This document shows positions 349-64,000 of a DNA stretch of 64,000 nucleotides, one piece after another. The position numbers and the translations under genes were made by a program. This stretch comes from Chloroflexota bacterium (GTDB taxonomy: Bacteria > Chloroflexota > Dehalococcoidia > Lucifugimonadales > Australimonadaceae): contig JADFQE010000002.1 in the NCBI GenBank assembly GCA_022561985.1, positions 697 to 64,696 on the forward strand, read 5' to 3'. Under the pieces are notes generated by a model that saw nothing but the letters and a program-made list of their open reading frames with translations, did not search any database and was not told the DNA's origin. Numbering within the stretch: position 1 is the first letter of the stretch; the number at the start of each line of letters is the position of its first letter.

Positions 349-2648
349 TGGCCGGCGCAACGCCATACCGAGGGAGGCCGCTGCGGCGCTTCGAGGACGA
401 GCGGCTGCTCCGGGGCGAGGGGTCCTTCGTCGACGACATGCACCGCCCCGGCATGCTGCACGCCTCGGTGCTCCGCAGTCCGCACGCCCACGCGCGGATA
501 CGCTCCGTGGACGCATCCCGCGCTCGCGCGATGGCGGGCGTGGTCGCGGTGCTGACGGGGGATGACGTACACGGGGTGCTGCCCAACATCGCCGCGGTCC
601 GCCGGGAGGGGATGGGCGAGACGCCCATCCCGGAGCATCCGGTGCTGGCGCATGAGCGCGTCTGCTACGTCGGCCAGCCCGTGGCCATCGCGGTGGCCGA
701 GGACCGCTACGCCGCGAGGGACGCGCTCGATCTGATCGAGGTGAGCTACGAGCCGCTGGAGCCGCTGCTGGACCCGCGCGCGGCGGCCGAGCCGGACGCT
801 CCGCTGCTGCACGCAGGAGGGGGCTCGAACGTCGTGCTGCGCACAGCGGCCGGCGCGGGCGACGTGGAGGGCGCGTTCGCGGCCGCGGACCACGTCGTGC
901 GCGCCAGCTTCGAGGTGCCGCGCCTGGCCGCGGTGCCGATGGAGTGCCGCGCCACGCTGGCCGAGTATGACGTGAGCACGGACACCCTCACGGTGTGGAC
1001 GTCGACGCAGGTGCCGCACCGCGTGAAGACGTACCTCGCCAACCTGCTGCCGGAGGCGCCGAGCCACATCCGCGTCATCGCGCCGGACGTGGGTGGCGGG
1101 TTCGGCCGCAAGATAGAGGTGTGGCCCGAGGAGGTCGCGCTCGCGTATCTGGCCCAGCAGCTCGGGCGGCCCGTGAAGTGGGCCGAGGACCGCTCCGAGA
1201 ACGTCGTGACGGGCCACGGCCGCGGCTTCACGGCGGACGTCGAAGCGGCGGTCGCCTCGGACGGGCGCGTGCTCGGCATGCGCTTCCGCATGCTGGCCGA
1301 CCTGGGGGCGTTCTTCCTGACGTCCACCGGCGGCCCACCCGGCAACGCGGTGCAGCGCGTCGCCGGCCCCTACGCGATCGAGGCGATGGACGTCGAATGC
1401 CTGGGCGTCGTGACGAACCGCCCGCCGACGGGCCCCTACCGCGGCGCTGGCGGCCCGGAGGCGGCGGTGCTCATCGAGCGCACGATGGACCTGATCGCCG
1501 CGGAGCTTGGGATGGACCCGGTCGAGCTGCGCAGGCGCAACTTCATCCCCGCCGACGCCTTCCCCTATGAGACGGCCACGGGGCTCACGTACGACTCGGG
1601 CGACTTCGGACGCGCGCTTGAGCGCGTGCTGGAGCTCGCGGGCTACGACGAGGTCCGCGAGCGCCAGCGCGCCGCGGGCGGGGACGGCCCGCTGATCGGG
1701 ATCGGCGTGGCCACGATCGTCAAAGCATCGGGCGGCAAGGCGAACGTGCGGAACGGCGAGGCGCGCGTGGAGATCGACGCCACCGGCCGGGTGACCATCT
1801 ACACGGACGTCTCGCCCCACGGCCAGGGCATCGAGACCTCCTTCGCGCAGATCGCGGCCGACCTGCTTGGCGTGCCGCCGGAGGATGTCTCGGTCCGTCA
1901 CGGCGACACCGACATGCTGGCGACCGGCGGCGGGACGACCTCGAGCCGGGGGCTGGCCGTCGGTGGATCGGCCGCCTACCTCGCGCTCGAGCAGGCGCAA
2001 GAACGCCTCACGCGGGCCGCCGCAACGCTGCTCGGCTGCGCGCCCGCCGACGTTTCACTCGCCGATGGGGCCGCGACGGCCGCACCCCCAGGGGCATCCA
2101 CCGGGCGGGTGCCGATCGGGGAGGTCGCGGCCGCCGCCCACCGGGAGGACGGCGAGCTCGTCTTCTCCGCGTCCTACACGCTGCCGGCGAACCCCTTCGC
2201 CTTCGCGGCGCACGCGGCGGTGGTCGAAATCGACCGCGATACCGGCGACGTCGCGCTGGTGCGCTTCGCCGCGGTGCACGACTGCGGCCGGATCATCAAC
2301 CCGATGATCGTCCGCGGCCAGATCCACGGAGGCATCACGCAGGGCATCGGCCAGGCGCTCTCCGAGGCGATGGTGTACGACGACGACGGGCAGCCGCTGA
2401 CGGGCAGCCTGATGACCTACGGCATCCCCACCGCCGAGACGACGCCGTCGTTCATCCTCGACCATATCGAGTCGCCGTCGCCGACCAACCCGCTGGGGAT
2501 CAAGGGCATCGGCGAGCTGCCAACAGTGGCCGCGCCGGTGGCGGTCGCCAACGCCGTCATGGACGCCCTCCGTGCGACGGCGACCCGGCACATCGACATG
2601 CCGCTGCTGCCGGAAAAGGTCTGGCGCGCGCTGCGCGAGGGCGCCTAG
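348..2648 (+). CDS. Molybdopterin-binding large subunit (CoxL/XdhA-like), xanthine dehydrogenase family; not a form I CO dehydrogenase
   Basis: 766 aa starting at the ATG at 348, inside ORF 108..2648. The N-terminus RFEDERLLRGEGSFVDDM..LHASVLRSPHAHARI is typical of aldehyde oxidase/XDH a/b-hammerhead proteins. The active-site loop reads PYRGAGGPE, not AYxCSFR. It is translationally coupled to the upstream subunit. Confidence 0.85.
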   Translation: MAGATPYRGRPLRRFEDERLLRGEGSFVDDMHRPGMLHASVLRSPHAHARIRSVDASRARAMAGVVAVLTGDDVHGVLPNIAAVRREGMGETPIPEHPVLAHERVCYVGQPVAIAVAEDRYAARDALDLIEVSYEPLEPLLDPRAAAEPDAPLLHAGGGSNVVLRTAAGAGDVEGAFAAADHVVRASFEVPRLAAVPMECRATLAEYDVSTDTLTVWTSTQVPHRVKTYLANLLPEAPSHIRVIAPDVGGGFGRKIEVWPEEVALAYLAQQLGRPVKWAEDRSENVVTGHGRGFTADVEAAVASDGRVLGMRFRMLADLGAFFLTSTGGPPGNAVQRVAGPYAIEAMDVECLGVVTNRPPTGPYRGAGGPEAAVLIERTMDLIAAELGMDPVELRRRNFIPADAFPYETATGLTYDSGDFGRALERVLELAGYDEVRERQRAAGGDGPLIGIGVATIVKASGGKANVRNGEARVEIDATGRVTIYTDVSPHGQGIETSFAQIAADLLGVPPEDVSVRHGDTDMLATGGGTTSSRGLAVGGSAAYLALEQAQERLTRAAATLLGCAPADVSLADGAATAAPPGASTGRVPIGEVAAAAHREDGELVFSASYTLPANPFAFAAHAAVVEIDRDTGDVALVRFAAVHDCGRIINPMIVRGQIHGGITQGIGQALSEAMVYDDDGQPLTGSLMTYGIPTAETTPSFILDHIESPSPTNPLGIKGIGELPTVAAPVAVANAVMDALRATATRHIDMPLLPEKVWRALREGA

Positions 2649-6195: not shown

Positions 6196-7310
6196 ATGCT
6201 TCGTGTCGAGAATCTGAAGAAGGTCTTCAACATCGACGGCCAGGAGGACGTCCAGGCCCTTCGTGGCGTGAGCTTCTCCATCTTACCGGGGGAGTTCTTC
6301 ACGCTGCTCGGGCCCAGCGGCTCCGGGAAGTCCACCCTGATCCGCTGCGTCGCCGGGCTCGAATCCCCCGAGGACGGAGAGATCTACATCGGCGACGTGC
6401 TCGTCTATTCGAAGCAGAAGAACGTCTACGTCCCCACGGAGCAGCGTCCCATCGGCATGGTGTTTCAGTCCTACGCCATCTGGCCGCACATGAGCGTGTT
6501 CGACAACGTGGCGTTCCCCCTGATCCACGGCGCGAGGAGCCGGGCGGACCGCGTGCCCAGGAGCGAGGTGCAGGGCCGCGTCCACGAGGCGCTGAGCCTC
6601 GTGAAGCTCCAGGACTTCGGCAAGCGCGGACCACGCAGCTCAGCGGCGGCCAGCAGCAGCGCGTCGCCCTCGCCCGGGCGCTCGTCGCCAAGCCGCGGCT
6701 GCTGCTGCTCGACGAGCCGCTCTCCAACCTGGACGCGAAGCTGCGCGAGGAGACGCGCGAGGAGCTCAAGGACCTGGTGGGCCCGCTCGACATCACGACC
6801 CTCTACGTCACCCACGACCAGGCCGAGGCGCTGACCATGTCGGACCGCATCGGCGTGATGCGCGACGGCAACCTGCTCGGGATCGGCACGCCGTACGAGC
6901 TCTACGCCGCGCCGCCCAGCAAGGACATCGCCGCCTTCATCGGGACCGCGAATTTCTTGGAGGGCACGCTCAAGCGGACCGACGGGCTCGCGACGGTCGA
7001 TACGGAGATCGGGAGCGTCCGCGTCACGCTCCCCGGCGACGCCGCCTCCCTGGAGGACGGGGTGACGGTGAGCGTGCTGGTCCGCCCCGAGTCGGTGAGC
7101 TGCACCGTCGGGGAGAAGGTTGCTGCGGACGCCGTGAACGTCTACGCCGGCACGATCCGCCGGGTCCAATTCCTTGGCAACACCATCGACGCCGACGTGC
7201 ACATCAACGGCACCGTCCTGCATGCGTCCCTCGCCGCGGCGGCACCACCGCAAGACGGCGACGTCGTCAGCGTCCATCTCCCTCCCGATGAGTGCAGGGT
7301 CGTCATCTAG
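6196..7310 (+). pseudogene. ABC transporter ATP-binding protein (PotA/FbpC/MalK-type importer ATPase) with a 1-nt frameshift
   Basis: ORF 6196..6834 carries Walker A (GPSGSGKST) and the Q-loop, then runs into nonsense. ORF 6777..7310 in another frame carries ..LLLLDEPLSNLDAKLR.. and the C-terminal regulatory domain. Adding one base after 6632 restores FGKRGPTQLSGGQQQRVALARAL. Confidence 0.8.
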
Positions 7311-12781: not shown

Positions 12782-13954
12782 ATGGCAACCACCAACCACC
12801 AACTCGCATCCAGGGAGCGGTCGATGAAGCGCAGCGAGCACGCGGTCCTCACCACCCACACCGGCAGCCTGCCGCGGTCCGAAGCCCTCCTCGGCCTGCT
12901 CGCCGAGCGCGAGGGCGGCCCGGAGCAGCGCGCCGCCTTCGACCAGGCCGCCGCCGGGGCCGTCGCGGACGCCGTGGACCGCCAGGCCGCGTTGGGCCTG
13001 GGCGTGGTCAGCGACGGCGAGCAGTCCAAGCCCAGCTACGCGACCTACGTGAAGGACCGGCTCTCCGGCTTCGACGGCACGACCCAGAGCCGCGACGGCC
13101 TCCCCTCGGACGTCGCCGATTTCCCGAGCTTCACCGCGGCCCGGAACAGCGACTCCGTGGAGCGCCCCACCTGCACCGGGCCCATCGCCTGGAGGGACTG
13201 GGACGCCGTGGGCCGCGACATCGAGAACCTCAGGGCCGCCGTGGAGCACGCCGACGTCCAGGAAGCCTTCATGACGGCCGCCTCGCCCGGCGTCATCACC
13301 CGGTTCCTGTCCAACGAGTACTACCCGACCCACGAGGCGTACCTCTACGCGCTGGCCGATGTGATGAAGGACGAGTACGAGGCCATCGCCGCAGCCGGCT
13401 TCATCGTCCAGGTCGACTGCCCAGACCTCGCCTCCGGCCGGAACACGGTCTTCGCGAGCCTCACGCCCGAAGAGTTCCGGGGCGTCGTGGCGCAGCACCT
13501 CGATGCGCTGGACCACGCGCTGGCAGATATCCCGCCGGAGCGCATCCGGATGCACCTGTGCTGGGGGAACCGCGAGGGGCCGCACCACAAGGACGTGCCG
13601 CTGGCCGAGATCATCGACCTGGTGCTGCTCGCCCGCCCGCAGGGCATCTCCTTCCCGGCGGCCAACCCCCGCCACGAGCACGAGTGGAAGGTCTGGGAGA
13701 GCGTGAAGCTGCCGGAGGGCAAGGTGCTGATCCCCGGCGTGATCGACACGACGACGAATTTCATCGAGCACCCGGAGCTCGTCGCGCAGCGCATCGAGCG
13801 CTACACGGGCGTGGTTGGCCGCGAGAACGTCATCGCGGGTACGGACTGCGGCCTGTCGACCTTCGCGGGAGGCTCGCGGGTGAATGGCGACATCGCGTGG
13901 GCGAAGCTCGGGGCGCTGGTGGAGGGCGCGGCCATCGCCAGCGCCCGCGCGTAG
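12782..13954 (+). CDS. Cobalamin-independent methionine synthase (MetE C-terminal domain)-like methyltransferase family protein
   Basis: It contains ..THTGSLPR.., a Zn-ligand-type RMHLCWGN and IAGTDCGLS. An alternative start is the ATG at 12824 (MKRSEHAV..). Confidence 0.75.
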   Translation: MATTNHQLASRERSMKRSEHAVLTTHTGSLPRSEALLGLLAEREGGPEQRAAFDQAAAGAVADAVDRQAALGLGVVSDGEQSKPSYATYVKDRLSGFDGTTQSRDGLPSDVADFPSFTAARNSDSVERPTCTGPIAWRDWDAVGRDIENLRAAVEHADVQEAFMTAASPGVITRFLSNEYYPTHEAYLYALADVMKDEYEAIAAAGFIVQVDCPDLASGRNTVFASLTPEEFRGVVAQHLDALDHALADIPPERIRMHLCWGNREGPHHKDVPLAEIIDLVLLARPQGISFPAANPRHEHEWKVWESVKLPEGKVLIPGVIDTTTNFIEHPELVAQRIERYTGVVGRENVIAGTDCGLSTFAGGSRVNGDIAWAKLGALVEGAAIASARA

Positions 13955-13960
13955 GGCCGC

Positions 13961-14689
13961 CTAGGGCACGTCCATGCGTTTGAGCCGCCGCACGGTGAGC
14001 AGCGTGAAGACGACGATGGTCAGGCCCGCAAGCGCGAGCGCCCAGCTCAGGTCGATGGCATTCTCCCCCAGGCTCGCGAAGGTCGTATCGTCCAGCCCGT
14101 GCAGGACGCCGACGGTGTAGCCCCGGACGCTCGCATAGCGGGCGCCGGGCAGGAACGAGTTCACGAGCGTCTCCCAGAGGAACACGTAGACCAGCGCGAA
14201 GCCGAGCGCGTGGGGGCTGAGCAGGCCGGCCCACGTGAAGATGGCCGCGTACGTCATGACCCCCACGAGGAGCGCAGCAGCGGCGGCGAGCACCGCGCGC
14301 GCACCGCCATCGCCGAGCGCGACCAGCACGATCACGACCGTGGCGCCCACGAGCAGCGGCGCGGCGATCATGGCCGATGCCATGAGCTTCGGGAGCACGA
14401 TCGAGAGCCGTGAGATGGGTTTGAGCACCAGCATGTTCAGCGTGCGGTCCTCGACCTCGTTCCCGAAGGCGGCCGTGCCCAGCGTCATGACGACGATGGG
14501 GAGGACGATGCCGATCATCGTGGCGTCGATGATGCCCCCGACGAAGCCGTCGGTGAAGTCCGCCTCCTGGGCCAGCAGTGCGTTGAGCAGGATGGCAAGG
14601 CCGACCGGCACCGCGGCCAGGAAGAACACGACCGCCAGGCGCCGCCGGCCCCCCAGCTGACGCAGCGTGAGCCTCAGCACGGCGCCCAT
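13961..14689 (-). CDS. ABC-2 type transporter permease (second permease of the operon)
   Basis: 242 aa from MGAVLRLTLRQLGG.., with about 6 hydrophobic helices. Its start overlaps the stop of the upstream ATPase (TGATG). Confidence 0.7.
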   Translation of the reverse strand: MGAVLRLTLRQLGGRRRLAVVFFLAAVPVGLAILLNALLAQEADFTDGFVGGIIDATMIGIVLPIVVMTLGTAAFGNEVEDRTLNMLVLKPISRLSIVLPKLMASAMIAAPLLVGATVVIVLVALGDGGARAVLAAAAALLVGVMTYAAIFTWAGLLSPHALGFALVYVFLWETLVNSFLPGARYASVRGYTVGVLHGLDDTTFASLGENAIDLSWALALAGLTIVVFTLLTVRRLKRMDVP

Positions 14690-15645
14690 CAGCGCTCCAC
14701 CACGTAGCTGAAGACGCTCTCGAGCGAGTCGTCCAGCGGCTCGACGCGGTACAGGCGGACCGAGAGATCGCGCGCCAGTGCCGCGACGGAGCGCTGGAGG
14801 TCCGCGACGTTGCTGCTCATCACGACCAGGGAGCCGTCCGTCTCGACCGCGACCGAGTCCACCGACGAGAGACGCACCAGCGCCGAGGCGAGCGCCCGCG
14901 GGTCGTCGGTCACGATCCGCAGGGTGAACGGCCGGTCGTCGAGCGCCTCGCGGATCGCGCGGTAGTCGCCGGAAGCGGCGAGCTTGCCGCTCACGATGAG
15001 CAGGATCGTGTCGGCCAGCTTCTCGACCTCTTCGAGGATGTGCGACGAGATGAGGATGGTCCGGCCCCGCTCGGCCATGGAGCGCATCAGGTCCTCGAAC
15101 TCGATCCGCTGGCGGGGGTCCGTGCCGTTCAGCGGCTCGTCGAGGATCAGCACCTCCGGGTCGTGGACCATCGCCGCGGCCAGCCGCATGCGCTGGCGCA
15201 TGCCGCGGGAGTAGGTGCCGAGGGGACGGTGCTGCGCGTCCTCCAGGTTCACGGTGCTGATGGCCCAGTCGGTGCTTGTGCGCACGTCCTCGACGCCCTG
15301 GAGCCGTGCCGCGAGCTCGACGAGCCCGCGCCCCGTCAGGAACTCGTAGACGGCCTCGTGCTCCGACATGACGCCGATGTGGCGGTAGAGCGAAGGGTTG
15401 GAGCGCGGGCGCTGTCCCAGGACGCGCACCTCGCCCTTTGACACCTTCGCGAGGCCCGCCATCATGTGGAGCAGCGTCGTCTTGCCGGCGCCGTTGGGGC
15501 CGAGCAGTCCGGTGATGCCGGGGCGTACCTGGAACGACACCTCGTTCACCGCGACGACGCTCCCGTACCACTTGGAGACCTCGTTGACCTCGATGGTCGC
15601 CCCCGAGACGGCTGCCCCCGAGACGGCTGCGTTGCCGGACGTCAT
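14689..15645 (-). CDS. ABC transporter ATP-binding protein (ABC-2/DrrA-type)
   Basis: 318 aa from MTSGNAAVSG.. It has Walker A (GPNGAGKTT), the signature YSRGMRQR and Walker B (LILDEP). An ATGA overlap joins it to the upstream permease. Confidence 0.85.
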   Translation of the reverse strand: MTSGNAAVSGAAVSGATIEVNEVSKWYGSVVAVNEVSFQVRPGITGLLGPNGAGKTTLLHMMAGLAKVSKGEVRVLGQRPRSNPSLYRHIGVMSEHEAVYEFLTGRGLVELAARLQGVEDVRTSTDWAISTVNLEDAQHRPLGTYSRGMRQRMRLAAAMVHDPEVLILDEPLNGTDPRQRIEFEDLMRSMAERGRTILISSHILEEVEKLADTILLIVSGKLAASGDYRAIREALDDRPFTLRIVTDDPRALASALVRLSSVDSVAVETDGSLVVMSSNVADLQRSVAALARDLSVRLYRVEPLDDSLESVFSYVVER

Positions 15646-16601
15646 ATGCGGATCCTCTGGTACCGCCACCACAACAAGGCGCCGGGGCCCGCGGTGAAGA
15701 GCAGGTACCAGCCGACGAGGAGCGCATCGGGGAGGTCGGCGGCCGCACGGGCGATCTCGGAGTCGTTCTCCCGGTCGAAGATCAGGTCGTTGACCCGGAG
15801 TGGGATCTCGCCGAGGGCGATCAGCGTGAACCACTTCGCGGCCTCCCCCGTGAGGGCTCCCTCCCCGCTCGGACGGCACTCCGTGTGGACGATCCGTCCA
15901 TCGACCTCGATCTCCTCGCACACGAAGTCCGGCGCCGTGAGCGCGGCAGCGGCCGCCGTGGACGTCAGGAACAGCCCGATGACGAAGGCCGCCGCGTAGG
16001 CCCGGCGGGTCGTGAACGCAGCTACCGCCAGCGGGATCACGGCGATGAACGCCGCGATCACCACGCCGGCGGCGAGGATGCGCAAGATCGTGCTCCAGCT
16101 ATCGCGGAGGTAGGTCAGCGGGTTGTCGGCCGAGAGCACCAGCCCGACCTGCAGCACGAGCTGCCCGGAGTAGACGATCGCCAGCACGATCGCGAAGAAG
16201 GCGAGGTAACGGCCCACCACGTAGTCGGTGGGCGTGAGCGGCCGCACGAGGTAGAGGTGGATGACGTTGTCGCGGCGGTCGGCGCACAGGAGCTCGGGGG
16301 CCATGATCGCCGAGAACAGCAGCAGGATCATGAAGACGACCTGGTAGTAGTCGGCGGGGCCGGGCAGGAAGCTGGCCAGGGGCTCGGCGAGCGACGCGAT
16401 GATGACGAGCACCAGGGCAGGGATCATCGCCGCGATGAAGAGGGCCGTCGGCAGTATCTTCGCCCGCGGGCCGCGCCCGAGGCCCAGCACCGTGCGCACG
16501 CCGTTCTCGAAGATGGCGCGCCGCGCCCGCGAGCGCCCCTCACGCGGGCCGTCGTAGTGCTGATATCCGAGGTCGAAGACCTCGCCCTGTGCTTCCGTCA
16601 C
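15642..16601 (-). CDS. ABC-2 type transporter permease-like membrane protein
   Basis: 319 aa with multiple TM helices. It sits between the two ATPases with 4-nt overlaps on both sides. Confidence 0.65.
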   Translation of the reverse strand: MTEAQGEVFDLGYQHYDGPREGRSRARRAIFENGVRTVLGLGRGPRAKILPTALFIAAMIPALVLVIIASLAEPLASFLPGPADYYQVVFMILLLFSAIMAPELLCADRRDNVIHLYLVRPLTPTDYVVGRYLAFFAIVLAIVYSGQLVLQVGLVLSADNPLTYLRDSWSTILRILAAGVVIAAFIAVIPLAVAAFTTRRAYAAAFVIGLFLTSTAAAAALTAPDFVCEEIEVDGRIVHTECRPSGEGALTGEAAKWFTLIALGEIPLRVNDLIFDRENDSEIARAAADLPDALLVGWYLLFTAGPGALLWWRYQRIRI

Positions 16602-17497
16602 TCCTCGCGCCTCCGGAACATCTCCGTGAGCGTGTGGCGGCGCGGGGTCAGCCGGCGCAAGCGGGCGCCCACATCGGCGACCGCGTCGCGGATCGCGTCG
16701 TAGTCGGCGTCGGTCGCGTTCTGGACGACGAGCTGCTGCGGCTCCTCGATGACCCGCACCCCGCGTCCGCTCAGCGCCCGCGCCACCCCCTCTCGGTCGT
16801 CGACCTCGATCAGCAGGTCCTCGGTCTCCTGCGTGAACTCCGAGAGCGCGCCCTCCTCGGAGACACGCCCATTTTCGAGCAGGATGACCCGGTCGGCCGT
16901 CCGCTCGATATCGCCCATCAGGTGCGTCGAGAGCAGCATGCTGATACCGAAGGAGTGCGCGGTGCGCCGGATCAGCTCCAGCATCTCCTCGCGCCCGCCG
17001 GGGTCGAGGCCCGCCGTCGGCTCGTCCAGCAGCACGAGCACCGGGTCGTGCACCAGCGACTGCGCGAGCTTGACGCGCTGCTTCATGCCCGTCGAGTACT
17101 CGCCGATCAGGCGGTAGCGCTCCTCGTCGAGGCCAACGTGCCGCAGGATGTCCGCTGCGCGGGTGCGCGCGTGGGCCGGCGGCAGGCCGCTGAGCTGCGC
17201 CATGTGCATGAGGAACTCGGACGCGTTCATGTTGGACGGCACGGTCTCGGTCTCGGGCATGTAGCCGAGCCGGGAGCGGCTCTCCACCGAGTCGTAGGGC
17301 CGCTTGCCCAGGACCTCGGCCGAGCCACTCGTGGGCCGGATCAACCCCAGGAACAGCTTGATGGCCGTGCTCTTCCCAGCGCCGTTGGGACCGAGCAGCC
17401 CGGTCACGCCCTCGTGCACCTCGAAGTTGACCGCGTCGAGGGCAATGGTCGAGCCGTAGTGCTTGGAGAGGTCGTGGGCTTCGATGAGCGGGGGCAT
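16598..17497 (-). CDS. ABC transporter ATP-binding protein (ABC-2/DrrA-type), first gene of the operon
   Basis: 299 aa. It has Walker A (GPNGAGKST), the signature YSTGMKQR and Walker B (LLDEP). Confidence 0.85.
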   Translation of the reverse strand: MPPLIEAHDLSKHYGSTIALDAVNFEVHEGVTGLLGPNGAGKSTAIKLFLGLIRPTSGSAEVLGKRPYDSVESRSRLGYMPETETVPSNMNASEFLMHMAQLSGLPPAHARTRAADILRHVGLDEERYRLIGEYSTGMKQRVKLAQSLVHDPVLVLLDEPTAGLDPGGREEMLELIRRTAHSFGISMLLSTHLMGDIERTADRVILLENGRVSEEGALSEFTQETEDLLIEVDDREGVARALSGRGVRVIEEPQQLVVQNATDADYDAIRDAVADVGARLRRLTPRRHTLTEMFRRREE

Positions 17498-25926: not shown

Positions 25927-27441
25927 CTACATCTGGAAGACCAGCGACTTCACCGTCACCGGCACGGTCCCCGACGGCTCCAGCACCGTCCCCAGGTCGA
26001 TGTAATCGAAGTCTCGTAGCTCGATCCCGTCGATGGACAGGATGTCGTTCCCAAGGCCGAAGTCGTCCTTGAGGATCGTGCCGACGAGCCCCCCCAGGTC
26101 GCGGTCGAACACGAGGTAGATGGGCTTTCCGCCTTTGATCGTGCCGGGCAGACCGGCGATCAGCCCGCGGCAGAAGGCGGCGATCCGAGCCGCGGCGGGC
26201 GGCCCGTCCCACCGGAACACCAGCGCGACCTCCGCCTCTCCCTCCTCGAGGTCGAAGGTGCGGAAGTGGTGCAGCACCCGCGCCGCGACGGCCTCCGGGT
26301 CGATGTCCCCGCTCAGGTCGACGTCGGGCCGCAGCACCTGGAGGTTCTTGCGCGGGAGCAGCACGTCGGCCGAGCGATAGAGCGTGTTGCCGCTCACCTG
26401 CACGGTGTACTGCGAGGCGCCCATGACCGTGGCGCGGATGCGCTCCGCCGCCGCCTCGAGCGGCCAGGAGAGCGCGCCGTCGGCGATCCGCGCCCGGAGC
26501 GCGGCCCCCATCGCTGCGCCGAGGTCCCCGAAGGATGCCGGCTCCTGGCCGTAGACGTACTCGCCCACGCCGCCGGAGAACACGATCGCGTCGTACTCCT
26601 TCGGCCCCTCAAGCGGCTCCGTGAGCCAGAGCGCCGCTATCTCGGCGGCCGGCTTCTCGTCGCGGATCAGCGCCAGGATGGCCGAGGCCATGTGGACCGC
26701 CACGCGCTCGATCTCCTCGGCCGGCGGCTTGTCGCCGAGGTTCCAGGCCAAGCCTGCCTGAGCGGCGAGGGTCTGTCCTCCCGGCTCGAGGATGGTGATG
26801 GCGCCGGCCTCGTCGGTCGCCATCAGGCGGCCGCCGACGTGCAGCGCCGCGGTGCCCAGCACGCGGCCACGCTCGGCCACCGCGAGCTTGGTCGTGCCGC
26901 CTCCGATGTCGACGTTGAGCACGCGGCACCCCCGCTTGGCGGAGAGCGCCACGGCGCCCGAGCCGTGGGCGGCCAGCAGCGCCTCGAAGTTGTGGCCGGC
27001 GCTCGCGCAGACGAAGTTGCCGCTCCGCTCGGCGAACAGGTCCGCGATGGCGCGGGCGTTGTCCCGCCGGATCGCCTCGCCGGTCAGGATGATGGCGCCC
27101 GTATCCACGCCGTCCGGCGCGATGCCCGCGTCGGCGTAGGCCGTGGCGACGAGCTGCCCGAGGGCGTCGTCGTCGATGCGCTCACGGTTGGGCGTATACG
27201 GCGTGAACCAGACGGGCGAGCGGTAGAGGGTCGTGCGCTCGACGACGACGAAGCGGCTGGAGAGCTCCAGGCCGAGCCTGCGGAGCACGAGCTTCGAGAA
27301 GATGATCTGCGAGGTCGCGGTGCCGACGTCGATGCCCACGCTGGTGAGCGTGATCGTATCGAGCTTCCAGAGGGGGTGCTCCTCCTCCTGCTCGTACAGG
27401 TCGTCGCCGTCGTGATCGTGCTCGCCTGGGTCGTCGTGCAT
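25927..27441 (-). CDS. eutA: EutA-like protein (ethanolamine ammonia-lyase reactivase family, ASKHA ATPase fold), orphan
   Basis: 504 aa from MHDDPGEH.., with GGAG upstream. It contains TSVGIDVGTATSQIIFSKL.., ..GAIILTGEA.., ..VLNVDIGGGTTK.. and the C-terminal ..YIDLGTVLEPSGTVPVTVKSLVF. These parallel enterobacterial EutA end to end. Confidence 0.75.
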   Translation of the reverse strand: MHDDPGEHDHDGDDLYEQEEEHPLWKLDTITLTSVGIDVGTATSQIIFSKLVLRRLGLELSSRFVVVERTTLYRSPVWFTPYTPNRERIDDDALGQLVATAYADAGIAPDGVDTGAIILTGEAIRRDNARAIADLFAERSGNFVCASAGHNFEALLAAHGSGAVALSAKRGCRVLNVDIGGGTTKLAVAERGRVLGTAALHVGGRLMATDEAGAITILEPGGQTLAAQAGLAWNLGDKPPAEEIERVAVHMASAILALIRDEKPAAEIAALWLTEPLEGPKEYDAIVFSGGVGEYVYGQEPASFGDLGAAMGAALRARIADGALSWPLEAAAERIRATVMGASQYTVQVSGNTLYRSADVLLPRKNLQVLRPDVDLSGDIDPEAVAARVLHHFRTFDLEEGEAEVALVFRWDGPPAAARIAAFCRGLIAGLPGTIKGGKPIYLVFDRDLGGLVGTILKDDFGLGNDILSIDGIELRDFDYIDLGTVLEPSGTVPVTVKSLVFQM

Positions 27442-27552
27442 CGGTTGCTCCACACCGCTTGTGGGGTGACGCAGCACCGAGCGGACCCCAGGAGTAAAAG
27501 GGCTCCGCTCGGTCCTGTGATCTCGGTCGGTTGCTGGAAGACCGGCTCCGGC

Positions 27553-28746
27553 TTACTCGTTCCCGGTGTGCTCGTCTTCGAAGTGGGCGTGGGCCGCCTC
27601 GGCGCCCGCCTCCCCCTCGCACCACGGGACCATGTTCTTCATGTGACAGACGAGGCCCCGCTTCTTGAGCTCCTCCTCGAAGATGCGGTGGATCTCCGGG
27701 TTCTCGTCCTCGTACTCGGTCTGGTGGCCGCCGGCCTTGGCGCTGACCTCGCCGCCGCGCAGCACCGTGGACTCGCTGGCCTGCCACCGGTCCCGTGCGT
27801 ACTTGCGGGAGATGCCCTGGCCCAGGACCAGGTACGTGGCTGGCGTCTCGCCCACGTTGAAGTGCTGGTGGAGCCACAGGCCTGCGCCCGCGCCCGAGAG
27901 GTACAGGCTGCCCTCCTGCCAGTCGCAGCGGATCCGCTCCTCCTCCTCCCGCTGGGTCAGCACGTAGCCGACGCCCTCGGTGATGTAGAGGTGCGCGCCG
28001 GGGCCGTGGCGGTGGGCCTTCTTGTAGTGGCCGGGCTCGAACCGCGACATGTGGGACTCGGCCATGCCGCTGCCCATGATCATGAAGGCGTTGGTGCCGC
28101 CGCCGCCGCGGCTCTTCCACTCGTACAGCGGCAGCTTCTTCACGTCCGGGATGAAGTTGGTCTCCCACACCCGGCCGCGCCAGAGCGTCGCCTCGGCGTT
28201 GAAGTAGTCGGGCGCGCCGGTGAAGCGGTCCTTGAACTCGTAGTTGTTCTCGAAGACGAAGTCCTCGCTGAGCCAGTTCCGCATGAGCGCGGGGAGGTCG
28301 GTGACCGCGAACCACCGCGCGGGCTGCGACATGCTGGCGTTGAAGAACTGGTGGGAGGCGTTCGTCGGCAGCACGAAGTAGCTGTGCGGGCCCCACTCGA
28401 AGGTCTGCTTCTCGCCGCCCTCGTGCCACACCGAGGTCGAGCCGTGCCCCGAGAGGACATAGATCGTCTCGGTGTACATGTGCCGCATCGGTGCGGTCGA
28501 GCCCCCCGGCGGCAGCTCGACGATGTGCTCGTCCTGGTCGTCGTCGCCGTCGAGATAGATGAGGGCGCCCTTGACGCCGTCGCCCTTGCGCGGCCAGAGG
28601 TCGACCTCGACGTCGAACATGCTCTTGATGTAGATGCCCCCGACCTTGGGGACGTCCTCGCGGTCGCGCCAGTCGGTGTAGACGTCGAGGCGGACGAGTG
28701 CCGCCTGCTTCTCGGGGTCCGGATCCGTGGGTCTTGCCGTAACCAT
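27553..28746 (-). CDS. Bicupin protein, paralog P2
   Basis: 397 aa from MVTARPTD.., with RBS GAGGGAGGGG. The C-terminal barrel has KKAHRHGPGAH...LWLHQHFN. The tail has EYEDENPEIHRIFEEELKKRG. Confidence 0.8.
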   Translation of the reverse strand: MVTARPTDPDPEKQAALVRLDVYTDWRDREDVPKVGGIYIKSMFDVEVDLWPRKGDGVKGALIYLDGDDDQDEHIVELPPGGSTAPMRHMYTETIYVLSGHGSTSVWHEGGEKQTFEWGPHSYFVLPTNASHQFFNASMSQPARWFAVTDLPALMRNWLSEDFVFENNYEFKDRFTGAPDYFNAEATLWRGRVWETNFIPDVKKLPLYEWKSRGGGGTNAFMIMGSGMAESHMSRFEPGHYKKAHRHGPGAHLYITEGVGYVLTQREEEERIRCDWQEGSLYLSGAGAGLWLHQHFNVGETPATYLVLGQGISRKYARDRWQASESTVLRGGEVSAKAGGHQTEYEDENPEIHRIFEEELKKRGLVCHMKNMVPWCEGEAGAEAAHAHFEDEHTGNE

Positions 28747-29083: not shown

Positions 29084-30256
29084 CTAGGTCCCGCGCAGAG
29101 CGTCCGCGAGGGCCATCGCTGGCGCAACATGGTCCGTGTTCCACCGCTCCAACCCCTGGTGCTCGCCGGGTGGGTCCGCGGCCGGTGGCAGGACGCCGCC
29201 GTTGTAGAGCCGGGCGGCGTTGGTGCACGTGACGGCCACGCGGGCCTCCACGGTGAGGTGGCCCAGGTCCTGCTGGATGATGGCGTCCGATATAGGCCAC
29301 GTGCAGGCGGGGTGCGGGTAGTCGTTGGACCACATGAAGGTGTCCTGGCCGTAGCGCTCCGCCATGTGCCCGCCGACGCGGTCGCTGATGAAAGTGGCCC
29401 ACACCTGCTTGCGCTCGAAGATGTACTCGCTCGGCGGCCGCGGGATCGCCGAGCGCCCGGCCTCGTTGCGGGAGAAGAAGTAGTAGTCGTACTCCTGGGC
29501 GAAAAACGGCAGCCAGCCCATCCCTGCTTCGGCGATGACGATGTTGAGGCCGGGGTGACGCTCCAGCACGCCGGACCCGATGATGTGACCCAGGGCCTGC
29601 ATGCAGTCGAGCTTCGAGACCTGCGGCGGCAGCAGCTTGGAGCGGTTCCCGCGCTCGTTGCCGCGGAGTGCGTTCGGGCCGGTGTTGATGTGCAGGTTCA
29701 CGGGCACACCGAGGGATTCGGCCATCGCCCACAGCGGCTCGTAGTGCAACGAGCTGAAGGGGAGCTCGTCCGGGGGGCCGATCCAGATGTCGGCGCCACG
29801 GAGCCCGGCCTTGACGCATCGCTCGAGCTCGGCGGCACCGTGGGCGCCGTTCCACATCGAGATCATGGCGAGCCCCCACAACCGCTGCGGAGCGACGGCG
29901 CAGAACTCGATCATCCAGTCGTTGTAGACGCGGATGTGGGCCTCCTCCAGCGCCGGGTCGCCCAGGAGCCAGGCCTGCTTGGCGTAGGTCGGGAACAGCA
30001 CGTCGGCGCTGACGCCGTCGAGGGCGAAGTCGCGCAGCCGCTCGTGGGGGTCCCAGCCGCCCGCGCGCAGGTGGTGGTTCGTCTCGTAGAGCACGTTCTT
30101 CGGGAAGCGCATCGCGCGGTCGCGCAGCCCCGCCGGGAGGCGCGTCTCCCACAGATCGGGCGGCTCCGCCATGTGCGAGTCCGCGGAGATACGCTGCTCT
30201 CCGGCGACGGCGGCTCCGCCGGCGCTCGGGTCGATGGCGGGTCGTGGGTCGGGCAT
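29084..30256 (-). CDS. Amidohydrolase-2 family protein, subtype B
   Basis: 390 aa. It has ..RISADSHMAEPPDLWETRLP.. and ..WSNDYPHPACTWP.. Confidence 0.8.
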   Translation of the reverse strand: MPDPRPAIDPSAGGAAVAGEQRISADSHMAEPPDLWETRLPAGLRDRAMRFPKNVLYETNHHLRAGGWDPHERLRDFALDGVSADVLFPTYAKQAWLLGDPALEEAHIRVYNDWMIEFCAVAPQRLWGLAMISMWNGAHGAAELERCVKAGLRGADIWIGPPDELPFSSLHYEPLWAMAESLGVPVNLHINTGPNALRGNERGNRSKLLPPQVSKLDCMQALGHIIGSGVLERHPGLNIVIAEAGMGWLPFFAQEYDYYFFSRNEAGRSAIPRPPSEYIFERKQVWATFISDRVGGHMAERYGQDTFMWSNDYPHPACTWPISDAIIQQDLGHLTVEARVAVTCTNAARLYNGGVLPPAADPPGEHQGLERWNTDHVAPAMALADALRGT

Positions 30257-45880: not shown

Positions 45881-47044
45881 CTATTTGCCGGAAGCGCGCG
45901 CGCCGATGTTCGCCCCCGACTCCTCGCCCTCGCCGTATCCCCATTTGTAGTCGAGGTTCTCGTAGGCCTCGGCCGGCATGAGGCTCTTGAGGCCGTGCTT
46001 GCCGAGCTCCTCCTCGAACTTCTCGCGGATCCAGAGCTCCTCGGCCGGGTACTCGATCTGGTTGCGGGCGCGGTCCTCGACATCCTCGCTCCAGCCCGAG
46101 AACTGCGGGAGCGGTGCGAGCGCGAGGTAGCGCGCCGGCGTCACGCTCACGTTGAAGTGCTGGTGGAACCAGCGGTCGGGCGGCGTGAACATGCTGCCCT
46201 CGTGCCACGGCGCGACGATCTTCTCCCCGCCCTCCGGCCACATGATGGAGTAGCCCTCCCCGGCGGGGATCACGATGACGCGGCCGGGGCCGTGACGGTG
46301 GCCCTTCTTGTAGGTGCCGGGCGGGAAGACCGACATGTGGCCGCCCATCTGGGAGTTGGGGAACGAGACGTCGACCACGTGGCCGCCGCCACCGCGGGCG
46401 CGGTGCGGGACGAGGTCCTCCCAGGCGCCCATGTCCGTGAAGAAGTTGCCGTACCAAGTCGCGCCGCGGCCCATGGCCGGCGCGCGCTTGGCGACCGCGT
46501 ACAGGTCGTCCCCCTTCGGCTGGAGCAGCTCCGGGTGGGCGTAGGAGTTGTTGAAGTAGAAGCCGGGGTCCGGCTCGAGCGACATGGCGACGGGCAGGTA
46601 GTTGTTGTGCAGCAGCCGCAGCGGCTGGTCCCCCCGGGCGTTGGCGAACTGCCGGTAGCTGCCCCGGGGGATCAGGAAGAGCGAGCGCGGGCCGAACTCG
46701 AAGCTATGCTTCGCCACGCCCTCGGCCCAGACGGTGGCGATGCCCCACCCGCTCACGGTGTAGATCACCTCGTCCAGCGCGAACCGCATCGGGGGCACCG
46801 ACGCCTTGGGCGCGATCTCGGTGATGCGCGCCTCGGCAACGCCCTCCATGCCGGAGAGCTGGACGAACGCGGCGTCACACTCCCGCTCGCCCCAAGGCGC
46901 CACCTCGATGGTCTTGAGGTCCTCGATGAAGTAGCCGCGGTGGACCGGCACGCCCTGGGCCTCCATCCATCGGTCGTACACGTACTTCCCGTCCCCGGCG
47001 CCGCCGCGGGCGATCTGGTCCTGCGCGTCCGCTTGCTGAGTCAA
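45881..47044 (-). CDS. Bicupin protein, paralog P4 (closest to P1)
   Basis: 387 aa. The proposed TTG start at 47044 is preceded by AGGAG 8 nt upstream. It contains YVYDRWMEAQGVPVHRGY.., KKGHRHGPGRVIVIPAGEGY and DRWFHQHFN. The 671-aa ORF extension upstream is Arg/Pro-rich junk. Confidence 0.75.
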   Translation of the reverse strand: MTQQADAQDQIARGGAGDGKYVYDRWMEAQGVPVHRGYFIEDLKTIEVAPWGERECDAAFVQLSGMEGVAEARITEIAPKASVPPMRFALDEVIYTVSGWGIATVWAEGVAKHSFEFGPRSLFLIPRGSYRQFANARGDQPLRLLHNNYLPVAMSLEPDPGFYFNNSYAHPELLQPKGDDLYAVAKRAPAMGRGATWYGNFFTDMGAWEDLVPHRARGGGGHVVDVSFPNSQMGGHMSVFPPGTYKKGHRHGPGRVIVIPAGEGYSIMWPEGGEKIVAPWHEGSMFTPPDRWFHQHFNVSVTPARYLALAPLPQFSGWSEDVEDRARNQIEYPAEELWIREKFEEELGKHGLKSLMPAEAYENLDYKWGYGEGEESGANIGARASGK

Positions 47045-63544: not shown

Positions 63545-64000
63545 CTAGGTATCCCGCACGTTGGTCGGGCCGACCACCCCGGTGCAGGAGGAGACGAACG
63601 CCTTCATGCGGCAGGGCACCCCGAGCTTCTTGAGGTCGGCCTCGAACATCTCGTGGACCTCTGCGACTTCGTCCTCGTACTCGATCTGCCAGCCACCCTC
63701 GCTGATGCTCACGTCCGAGCCGGTGGTGGTGCTGCTCGGCGTTCCGATCCCCTGGCGCAGCGCGAGGTAGCGGGCGCGCTCGGAACCGGTGTTGAAGTGC
63801 TGGTGGTAGGTCGCGTCGGCGGGGACGATGACCATGCTGCCCACCTTCCAGTCCGCCCGGCGTATGTCCGAACGGTCCTCTTTGTTCCAGAGGAGTGAGA
63901 AGCCGGCGCCGCTGAGGATGAGCAGGTGCGCGCCGGGGCCATGCCGGTGGGCCTTCTTGTAGGTGCCCACGGGGAACTCGGAGATGTGCGCCCCCGTGAC
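63545..64000 (-). CDS. Bicupin protein, paralog P5, C-terminal part (5' end outside window; closest to P2)
   Basis: It contains ..YKKAHRHGPGAHLLILSGAGF.., ATYHQHFN and IEYEDEVAEVHEMFEADLKKLG. The frame stays open to base 64000. Confidence 0.75.
   Translation of the reverse strand, partial: VTGAHISEFPVGTYKKAHRHGPGAHLLILSGAGFSLLWNKEDRSDIRRADWKVGSMVIVPADATYHQHFNTGSERARYLALRQGIGTPSSTTTGSDVSISEGGWQIEYEDEVAEVHEMFEADLKKLGVPCRMKAFVSSCTGVVGPTNVRDT

Follow-up and report, generated by a model that had tools for sequence, protein, structure and literature searches.

A non-canonical EutA-family ATPase encoded beside a bicupin and its candidate role as a dedicated activase

Immediately downstream of a gene for a two-domain cupin (bicupin P2), the 64,000-nucleotide (nt) stretch of Chloroflexota contig JADFQE010000002.1 analyzed here (hereafter, the window) encodes a 504-amino acid (aa) EutA-like protein with the nucleotide-binding motifs of an ASKHA ATPase. 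Comparison with homologous loci strongly supports the prediction, drawn from gene order and sequence, that this EutA-like protein is a dedicated partner of the adjacent bicupin. The best explanation of its divergence from canonical EutA is that the window gene does not encode a reactivase of ethanolamine ammonia-lyase (EAL), but instead belongs to a large uncharacterized branch of the EutA family. We favor, with moderate confidence, a role in which the protein, dedicated to the adjacent bicupin metalloenzyme, would use ATP to activate or chaperone it within clusters for aromatic or heteroaromatic catabolism. An earlier note on the window, made from its sequence alone, had suggested recruitment of a reactivase to a client other than a B12 enzyme, possibly the cupin; comparative genomics supports this suggestion, with the bicupin as the putative client. 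What would be new is the class of client served by an ASKHA reactivase or chaperone, together with its putatively metal-binding tails.

Results

Conserved pairing of EutA-like proteins with bicupins

Homologous loci were drawn from a genome-collection scan (80 loci) together with 11 context look-ups for EutA-like proteins, one for a bicupin, and plasmid records. Gene calls in these loci were crude, being guided by G+C content at third codon positions (GC3), and the adjacency tallies therefore rest on tblastn coordinates. In the clade containing the window protein (clade A, 65–100% identical; the window and metagenome-assembled genomes [MAGs] named Binatia, Deltaproteobacteria, or Syntrophobacterales), a P2 orthologue (76–86% identical) lies immediately upstream on the same strand at 9/9 loci, while the other neighbors all differ, including a dienelactone hydrolase (DLH), TctABC with Amdase, enoyl-CoA hydratases with a CoA ligase, UbiD, and a major facilitator superfamily (MFS) transporter. 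Clade 2 (42–47% identical, Proteobacteria) has its own bicupin paralogue immediately upstream at 17/17 loci. Clade 1 (51–56% identical, Proteobacteria and Acidobacteriota) has a bicupin (9 loci) or a monocupin (11 loci) immediately downstream where no transporter is inserted, and at most of its other loci the cupins lie a few genes off, past an inserted ABC transporter. Among more distant homologues (36–50% identical), bicupins of this family were again adjacent or close to four of five randomly chosen representatives (P0320, P0306, P0264, and P0243); the contig of the fifth is only 2.4 kb long and uninformative.

At several loci, only a few nt separate the two genes or their ends overlap by a few bases, and no EutA-cupin gene fusion was evident among 150 representatives, as judged by protein length only. 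Across 24 adjacent EutA-like/bicupin pairs, a mirror-tree comparison of sequence identities gave r = 0.94, a value reached in 0 of 1000 permutations. This coefficient is inflated by shared phylogeny, a bias that does not extend to the paralogue-specific pairing observed in genomes with two pairs, in which each EutA-like paralogue matches its own bicupin paralogue. Linkage to the bicupin, on which the suggestion of the earlier note depended, is thus retained from clade A to the distant representatives.

Divergence from canonical EutA

Canonical EutA restores EAL, its client, by ATP-dependent replacement of damaged cobalamin with intact coenzyme (PMC9426561). The window protein had been described in the earlier note as matching EutA from its N terminus (SVGIDVGTATSQIIFS in the translated open reading frame [ORF]) to its C terminus (YIDLGTVLEPSGTVPVTVKSLVF), and the description holds: Pfam EutA (PF06277) aligns over its full length (residues 31–503 with positions 2–475 of 475 in the model; E = 3.7e-114), and E. 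coli K-12 EutA is 34% identical over 482 aa (E = 2e-62). The window protein shares the conserved ASKHA motifs GIDVGT, DIGGGT, and SGGVGE with clades 1 and 2 and with E. coli EutA, and it matches the phosphate-1 (DxGxT), phosphate-2 (DxGGGT), and adenosine (GGxxE) patterns. By these kept nucleotide-binding motifs, the EutA-like proteins of all clades are predicted to be ATPase-competent.

Scores against the NCBIfam EutA equivalogs (NF007991–NF007994) fell short of every cut-off, the best being 311.1 bits against 598 and the others 216–266 against 769–952. Identity of the window protein to the EutAs of E. coli, Halalkalicoccus, and Listeria is 30–34%, as compared to 42–78% within the non-canonical clades. 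A family search over 1.84 billion cluster representatives returned 838 clusters (50% identity) at E ≤ 1e-30, of which the best 150 all scored above 300 bits. In a neighbor-joining tree of 153 sequences, built without bootstrap and with only three canonical sequences, the 150 non-canonical proteins formed one clan that excluded the three canonical EutAs.

Genes for a B12-dependent client were likewise absent from the surroundings. Pfam detected no EutB, EutC, bacterial microcompartment shell, B12-binding, diol-dehydratase, or mutase domain in ∼50 window genes, and an annotation gap at 13961..15921 contains ABC-exporter genes and no B12 enzyme as read from ORF translations. With EutB and EutC of E. 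coli, Halalkalicoccus, and Listeria as queries, tblastn gave 0 matches in the window and 95 loci (1.51 Mb), and EutB, EutC, EutT, EutH, EutL, EutM, and EutJ queries gave none in the window and 83 loci. The canonical controls were positive: eutB-eutC-eutA are adjacent on a Halalkalicoccus plasmid, as are eutA-eutB-eutC in Listeria, and eutA of E. coli K-12 lies in the eut operon with a cryptic prophage between eutA and eutBC. The statement of the earlier note that the 64 kb hold no eutBC or other B12 enzyme is thereby borne out, and the clustering of eutBC with this clade, which that note had named as evidence that would speak against its suggestion, did not occur in the window and 95 loci.

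Public annotation does not reflect this divergence. The non-canonical ATPases (e.g., P0005, P0020, and P0081) are all named EutA though they fall below the NCBIfam equivalog cut-offs, and P0215, a bicupin 79% identical to P2, bears the name “ethanolamine ammonia lyase-activating protein”. Such names look like annotation by association, in which adjacency was propagated as a name and not interpreted, and by the evidence such names are misnomers in this clade, which comprises 150 or more clusters at 50% identity. Literature matches for EutA together with cupin concern the unrelated EutA of ectoine utilization or EutQ.

Predicted metal site of the bicupin

An AlphaFold2 (AF2) model of P2 (pLDDT 85.7) has a generic bicupin fold, and Foldseek matched it to OxdC, MncA, gentisate and salicylate dioxygenases, and vicilins (including 3bu7 and 2phd) with a TM-score of ∼0.45 at best; with generic bicupins only among the matches, no functional assignment followed. 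A PDB sequence search with P2 gave only marginal partial matches (E ∼1e-3), and the best scores against NCBIfam equivalogs were 25–30 bits against cut-offs of 140–650 (5-aminosalicylate dioxygenase, 25 against 650). In the C-terminal cupin (HRHGPGAH...LHQHFN), H245, H247, H293, and H295 are invariant and H252 is near-invariant; by motif, the invariant histidines are the classical cupin metal site, HxH(x)4H...H(x)3N, of the C-terminal domain. H89 and E93 of the N-terminal cupin are nearly invariant, and both Cys and His are present in the C-terminal tail.

P2 is one of four window bicupins (Table 1) that form a single family, being 31–37% identical to one another and sharing YKKxH...HQHFN. Alignment of P1 with P2 shows the C-domain HxH...HQHFN kept and the N-domain His and Glu lost, a pattern repeated in P4 (YKKGHRHGPG...WFHQHFN), and P1 is a possible further client of the EutA-like protein. 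A partial tblastn match at the right edge of the window (63602..63967, minus strand) may be a fragment of a fifth bicupin.

Histidine-rich tails and metal-associated genes

Proteins that deliver metal characteristically carry variable tails rich in His. E. coli EutA begins 8 aa before its first ASKHA motif, and the window protein carries an additional N-terminal extension (Table 1) that begins MHDDPGEHDHD, a His-rich tract of the metallochaperone type with putative metal binding. In clade A, the extension follows the pattern MHDxPxxHDHD...EEEHPLW; across 30 homologues, H2, H8, and H22 never vary and H10 is almost as constant. The N-terminal extension of clade 1 is longer (∼60 aa), with 6–11 His around a DHDHDH core, and a C-terminal poly-His tract is frequent (e.g., HEHGHHHHHHDHDHGHTH). 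Two clade-1 loci, L012 (9884..11581) and L068 (9857..11602), encode proteins with C-terminal poly-His (e.g., HEHGHHHHHHDHDHGHTHDQHGHHGHEH) besides the N-terminal DHDHDH; either end can therefore carry putatively metal-binding low-complexity sequence. At least four His precede the first ASKHA motif in 52/139 family representatives.

A NiCoT-like permease with the HX4DH motif lies inside the conserved gene cluster at 13–22 loci. On the Phyllobacterium zundukense plasmid NZ_CP104971.1 (L089, 12681..17063), the genes stand in the order cupin, EutA-like, HoxN/NixA Ni/Co transporter (convergent), and nikR; a NikR homologue is also encoded in L004, and a cation diffusion facilitator (CDF) exporter abuts the EutA-like/bicupin pair in L096. 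The tails on the ATPase and the Ni/Co transporters and NikR of some clusters give further backing to the direction taken by the earlier note. In the Phyllobacterium transporter/nikR promoter (∼16604..16631), GTATGA-N16-TCTTAC is close to the NikR consensus, a site that would be expected there and is uninformative about the cupin; upstream of the cupin gene, a search for a NikR box found only an atypical TCATAC-N5-GTATTA repeat. P. zundukense is culturable, and the nickel hypothesis could be tested there.

Gene context in the window

Window genes (∼69% G+C) were called as GC3-guided ORFs and translated; the features discussed are collected in Table 1. The start codon of the EutA-like gene was assigned to the ATG at 27441 because a GGAG lies 6 nt before it and the N-terminal H2 and H8 are invariant in 30 homologues. 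As the earlier note had it, the gene follows P2 on the same strand, with a corrected spacing of 111 nt in place of 112, and an amidohydrolase gene is indeed present in the neighborhood; downstream lies a convergent gene for an S8 protease (Pfam). The spacer contains a hairpin (∼27476..27513, minus strand) with a 14-bp stem including one mismatch, a 10-nt loop, and no T-tract, and RNAfold gave −50.4 kcal/mol for the 111 nt. Such a hairpin could attenuate or process the transcript and so set the stoichiometry of enzyme to chaperone; as a conserved regulatory element it was rejected, since it is not kept in other clade-A loci. Consensus scans of the sigma-70 type, which are weak in a high-GC genome, found neither promoter nor terminator in the spacer.

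Table 1. Coordinates of features in the 64,000-nt window
Feature	Position	Strand	Description
EutA-like ASKHA ATPase gene, non-canonical, clade A	25927..27441	-	504 aa; assigned by Pfam EutA, NCBIfam, motifs, and tree
Codons of N-terminal extension (MHDDPGEHDHDGDDLYEQEEEHPLW)	27352..27441	-	∼30 aa, rich in His/Asp/Glu; absent from E. coli EutA
Spacer between bicupin P2 and EutA-like gene	27442..27552	-	111 nt; stem-loop and GGAG 6 nt before ATG
Bicupin P2	27553..28746	-	397 aa; proposed client/partner; Pfam Cupin_2 x2 and Cupin_7
Amidohydro_2 gene	29084..30256	-	Pfam; 337 nt upstream of P2
Bicupin paralogue P1	3233..4387	+	37% identical to P2; no adjacent EutA-like gene
Bicupin paralogue P3	41241..42359	+	36% identical to P2; no adjacent EutA-like gene
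Bicupin paralogue P4, P1-like	45881..47000 (start approximate)	-	tblastn 45950..46978; missed by simple gene caller

The window is packed with catabolic families. Besides four bicupins, it encodes three monocupins, five Amidohydro_2 proteins, two class II aldolase/adducin proteins, a LigXa-like Rieske oxygenase, a Mo-hydroxylase, a thiamine pyrophosphate (TPP) enzyme, two NMT1-like proteins, VOC/glyoxalase proteins, a dienelactone hydrolase, a Pot/Phn-type ABC importer, and an F420H2-dependent quinone reductase, the last of which may hint at a host of actinobacterial type. Homologues of most of the families in a clade-1 gene supercluster are present, dispersed over 64 kb. This supercluster, observed in L004, L010, L023, L047 (1..21448), L068, and ∼40 other loci of Proteobacteria and Acidobacteriota, typically has the order Mo-hydroxylase, [bicupin2-EutA2], substrate-binding protein (SBP), NiCoT-like permease, IclR, ferredoxin reductase, NMT1-like protein, EutA1, (class II aldolase), fused ABC permease, ABC ATPase, (TPP enzyme), monocupin, monocupin, bicupin1, SBP, and Rieske oxygenase; it also occurs with a PdxA-like dehydrogenase, a LigXa-like Rieske oxygenase, and two EutA-like/bicupin pairs. 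The supercluster is apparently uncharacterized. NCBIfam provides no specific name for the bicupins, the NMT1-like protein, or the substrate-binding proteins, and the ABC transporter is PhnS2T2U2/Pot-like at scores below the NCBIfam cut-off, by which metal and substrate import are not told apart. Phthalate-like, gallate-like, and pyridine-ring pathways were considered for the clusters, as candidates drawn from the PdxA-like, RraA, LigXa-like Rieske, class II aldolase, and Mo-hydroxylase genes, and none was specifically supported.

Further observations concern individual loci. A clade-1 subgroup of the Xanthobacteraceae/Rhodoplanes type is free of cupins within 10 kb (L011, L016, L024, L027, L045, L056, L066, and L069) and neighbors a response regulator, TctC-type binding proteins, Glyoxalase_3, a short TPP_N protein, an AMP-ligase, a thioesterase, and a Zn-dependent alcohol dehydrogenase (Zn-ADH); its client may be a VOC-fold metalloenzyme or a protein encoded elsewhere. 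An ABC ATPase of the window appears to be split over two overlapping ORFs (6196..6834 and 6777..7310, both plus strand), with ABC_tran ending at model position 106/137 and TOBE_2 following, which suggests a frameshift, either in a pseudogene or from a sequencing error. A MetE-like protein (Meth_synt_2, cobalamin-independent) is encoded in the window at 12782..13954 (plus strand) and in L094 at 931..2082 (minus strand), the latter near a distant EutA-like/bicupin pair.

Discussion

Proposed function and alternatives

From comparative genomics, we infer an ATP-dependent activase or metallochaperone that would load or exchange the metal of the bicupin; the physical interaction, the handling of metal, the identity of that metal, and the substrate of the bicupin form part of the same inference. 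In the proposed mechanism, the ASKHA ATPase would bind the bicupin and open it with ATP, by analogy to cobalamin exchange by EutA, whereupon an active-site metal that is wrongly loaded, oxidized, or missing could be exchanged, with the His/Asp-rich tail acting as a possible metal-binding donor or reservoir. A role in metal loading or exchange is suggested by the exchange of a metal cofactor by the EutA relative, the His-rich tails, and the recurrent Ni/Co transport genes, and the metal may be Ni or Co, as suggested by the NiCoT-type permeases and NikR of some clusters. A bolder version, which we put forward only tentatively, holds that the non-canonical clade constitutes the first ASKHA-fold metallochaperone: an ATP-dependent Ni (or Co) insertase and exchange factor that would mature a hitherto unrecognized family of Ni/Co-dependent bicupins in aerobic aromatic catabolism, with the His/Asp-rich tails as metal donor and the EutA of eut operons as a specialized offshoot of a broader family of metal-cofactor exchangers.

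Several observations weigh against an activase dedicated to the bicupin. No cupin is encoded within 10 kb at about 12 clade-1 loci of the Xanthobacteraceae type; conversely, the bicupins P1, P3, and P4, and also P0226 (63% identical to P2), have no adjacent EutA-like gene. Clade 2 has no His-rich tail, and a Ni/Co transporter was recognizable in 0/9 clade-A loci, the window included, so that the nickel/cobalt idea is drawn from clades 1 and 2. For the EutA-like protein, AF2 yielded a poor model (pLDDT 61, pTM 0.49) from a shallow alignment of sequences >70% identical, and no structural argument is based on it; a PDB sequence search with the protein gave no match. Full-text literature searches, with most subscription journals outside their scope, returned nothing on non-canonical EutA or on a link between EutA and cupins. 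Finally, a two-subunit enzyme would account just as well for the tight 1:1 pairing and for 72–79% conservation between distant lineages.

Such an enzyme is the main rival, and we consider it rather unlikely. The EutA-like subunit would activate a small molecule with ATP, through chemistry like that of kinases, carboxylases, or hydantoinase A, and the bicupin would then cleave, decarboxylate, or isomerize the activated product. The ASKHA superfamily includes many ATP-dependent small-molecule enzymes, and the strict 1:1 adjacency, overlapping genes, co-diversification, identity of 72–79% between the window and MAGs named Binatia, Deltaproteobacteria, or Syntrophobacterales, and tail-less clade 2 are all consistent with two catalytic components. 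However, the nearest characterized relative, EutA, is a protein-directed reactivase, low-complexity terminal His tracts of variable length are typical of metal-handling tails and not of catalytic sites, Ni/Co permeases and NikR occur in some clusters, and related bicupins exist without an ATPase partner. An activase that repairs its bicupin and does not deliver metal, by coupling ATP hydrolysis to re-reduction or release of an oxidized or inhibited Fe center in a bicupin dioxygenase, appears improbable. Precedents exist in the XylT ferredoxin for catechol 2,3-dioxygenase and in the ASKHA activases RACo and HgdC, activation of metal centers being an established theme for ASKHA proteins; the clusters are rich in oxygenases, with Rieske oxygenases, reductases, and ferredoxins, and the bicupin fold resembles that of ring-cleaving dioxygenases. 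In contrast, the EutA-like protein lacks any Fe-S or flavin domain, and its cysteines form no conserved cluster (invariance of C145 and C424 is confined to clade A); the His-rich tails, like the Ni/Co transporters, speak for a supply of metal and not for a transfer of electrons.

A different client for the EutA-like protein, whether the TPP enzyme, the class II aldolase/adducin, Glyoxalase_3 (VOC), or the NMT1-like protein, ranks lower again. Clade-1 neighbors are often an NMT1-like protein (upstream) and a class II aldolase or ABC permease (downstream), and the ∼12 loci free of cupins within 10 kb contain Glyoxalase_3; yet the bicupin is the one constant adjacent gene at clade-A and clade-2 loci, where all other neighbors vary, and it is with the bicupin that the mirror-tree signal is observed. 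Least probable is an ordinary EutA that reactivates an EAL encoded elsewhere in the genome, with the cupin adjacency incidental. The full-length Pfam EutA match and the public annotation of homologues as EutA agree with it, and the analysis spans 64 kb of a genome otherwise unseen, but the scores below every NCBIfam EutA equivalog cut-off, the clan separate from eutBC-linked EutAs, the lack of EutB or EutC in 1.5 Mb around 95 homologues, the pairing with bicupins that is kept across phyla and co-diversifies, and the His-rich tails absent from E. coli EutA all argue against it.

Genes that carry the automatic name “ethanolamine ammonia-lyase reactivating factor EutA” number in the thousands among bacteria of soils and sediments (Binatia, Acidobacteriota, Alpha-, Beta-, and Gammaproteobacteria, and the high-GC window). 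If an activase dedicated to the bicupin is correct, it would add a new fold class to the few ATP/GTP-driven factors for assembly or repair of metal centers, define a new family of accessory-dependent cupin enzymes, and account for the recurrent catabolic supercluster of Rieske oxygenase, reductase, TPP enzyme, class II aldolase, cupins, ABC transporter, and NiCoT. Bicupins of this family might then be inactive upon heterologous expression without the co-expressed ATPase. Novelty would be greater if ASKHA-fold insertion of nickel or cobalt were demonstrated.

Comparison with known systems

The two-domain cupin fold and His-based metal motif of P2 are reminiscent of gentisate and salicylate 1,2-dioxygenases, OxdC, and MncA. 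In contrast to these solved bicupins, to which it is only 10–17% identical with a TM-score of ∼0.45, P2 has its HxH(x)4H...H(x)3N site in the C-terminal domain and a distinctive C-terminal helix and Cys/His tail; to our knowledge, no bicupin enzyme of these families has been reported to need an ATPase partner. Among activators of metal cofactors, RACo (for the corrinoid Fe-S protein) and the HgdC/BcrAD-type activators employ Fe-S clusters and ATP-coupled electron transfer. They resemble the EutA-like protein as ASKHA ATPases that activate the metal cofactor of a partner, and a weak sub-threshold Pfam cross-match to BcrAD_BadFG was found; unlike them, the EutA-like protein has no Fer2 or Fer4 domain, and no Cys is conserved across clades. 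The variable His-rich terminal tracts, the linkage to NiCoT and NikR in some loci, and the encoding next to the metalloenzyme putatively served recall the His-rich metallochaperones HypB, UreE, SlyD, and CooJ and the nitrile-hydratase activators. The likeness is a functional analogy only, the fold being unrelated and the Pfam and NCBIfam matches of the EutA-like protein being of ASKHA type only. HypB, UreG, and CooC, which deliver nickel in a nucleotide-dependent way, belong to the SIMIBI class of NTPases and not to the ASKHA ATPases, and we know of no metallochaperone in the EutA family.

Closer in concept are the diol and glycerol dehydratase reactivases DdrAB and GdrAB, ATP-dependent Hsp70/ASKHA-like chaperones that pry their client open and exchange an inactivated cofactor, much as proposed for the EutA-like protein. 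The differences are that the EutA-like protein has no Pfam DdrA match, that its proposed client is not a B12 enzyme, and that Pfam revealed no gene for a small beta subunit of the DdrAB/GdrAB type among the window neighbors. EutA of E. coli and Salmonella (PF06277) shares full-length homology and the same ASKHA nucleotide-binding motifs with the EutA-like protein. The latter differs in its place below the equivalog cut-offs and in a separate clan, its His/Asp-rich tails, and its surroundings, in which eutBC, eutT, and shell genes are absent, no corrinoid link was detected, and the partner gene encodes a bicupin. By analogy, the EutA-like protein probably shares the logic of EutA, that of an ATP-driven accessory protein restoring a cofactor-dependent enzyme encoded beside it.

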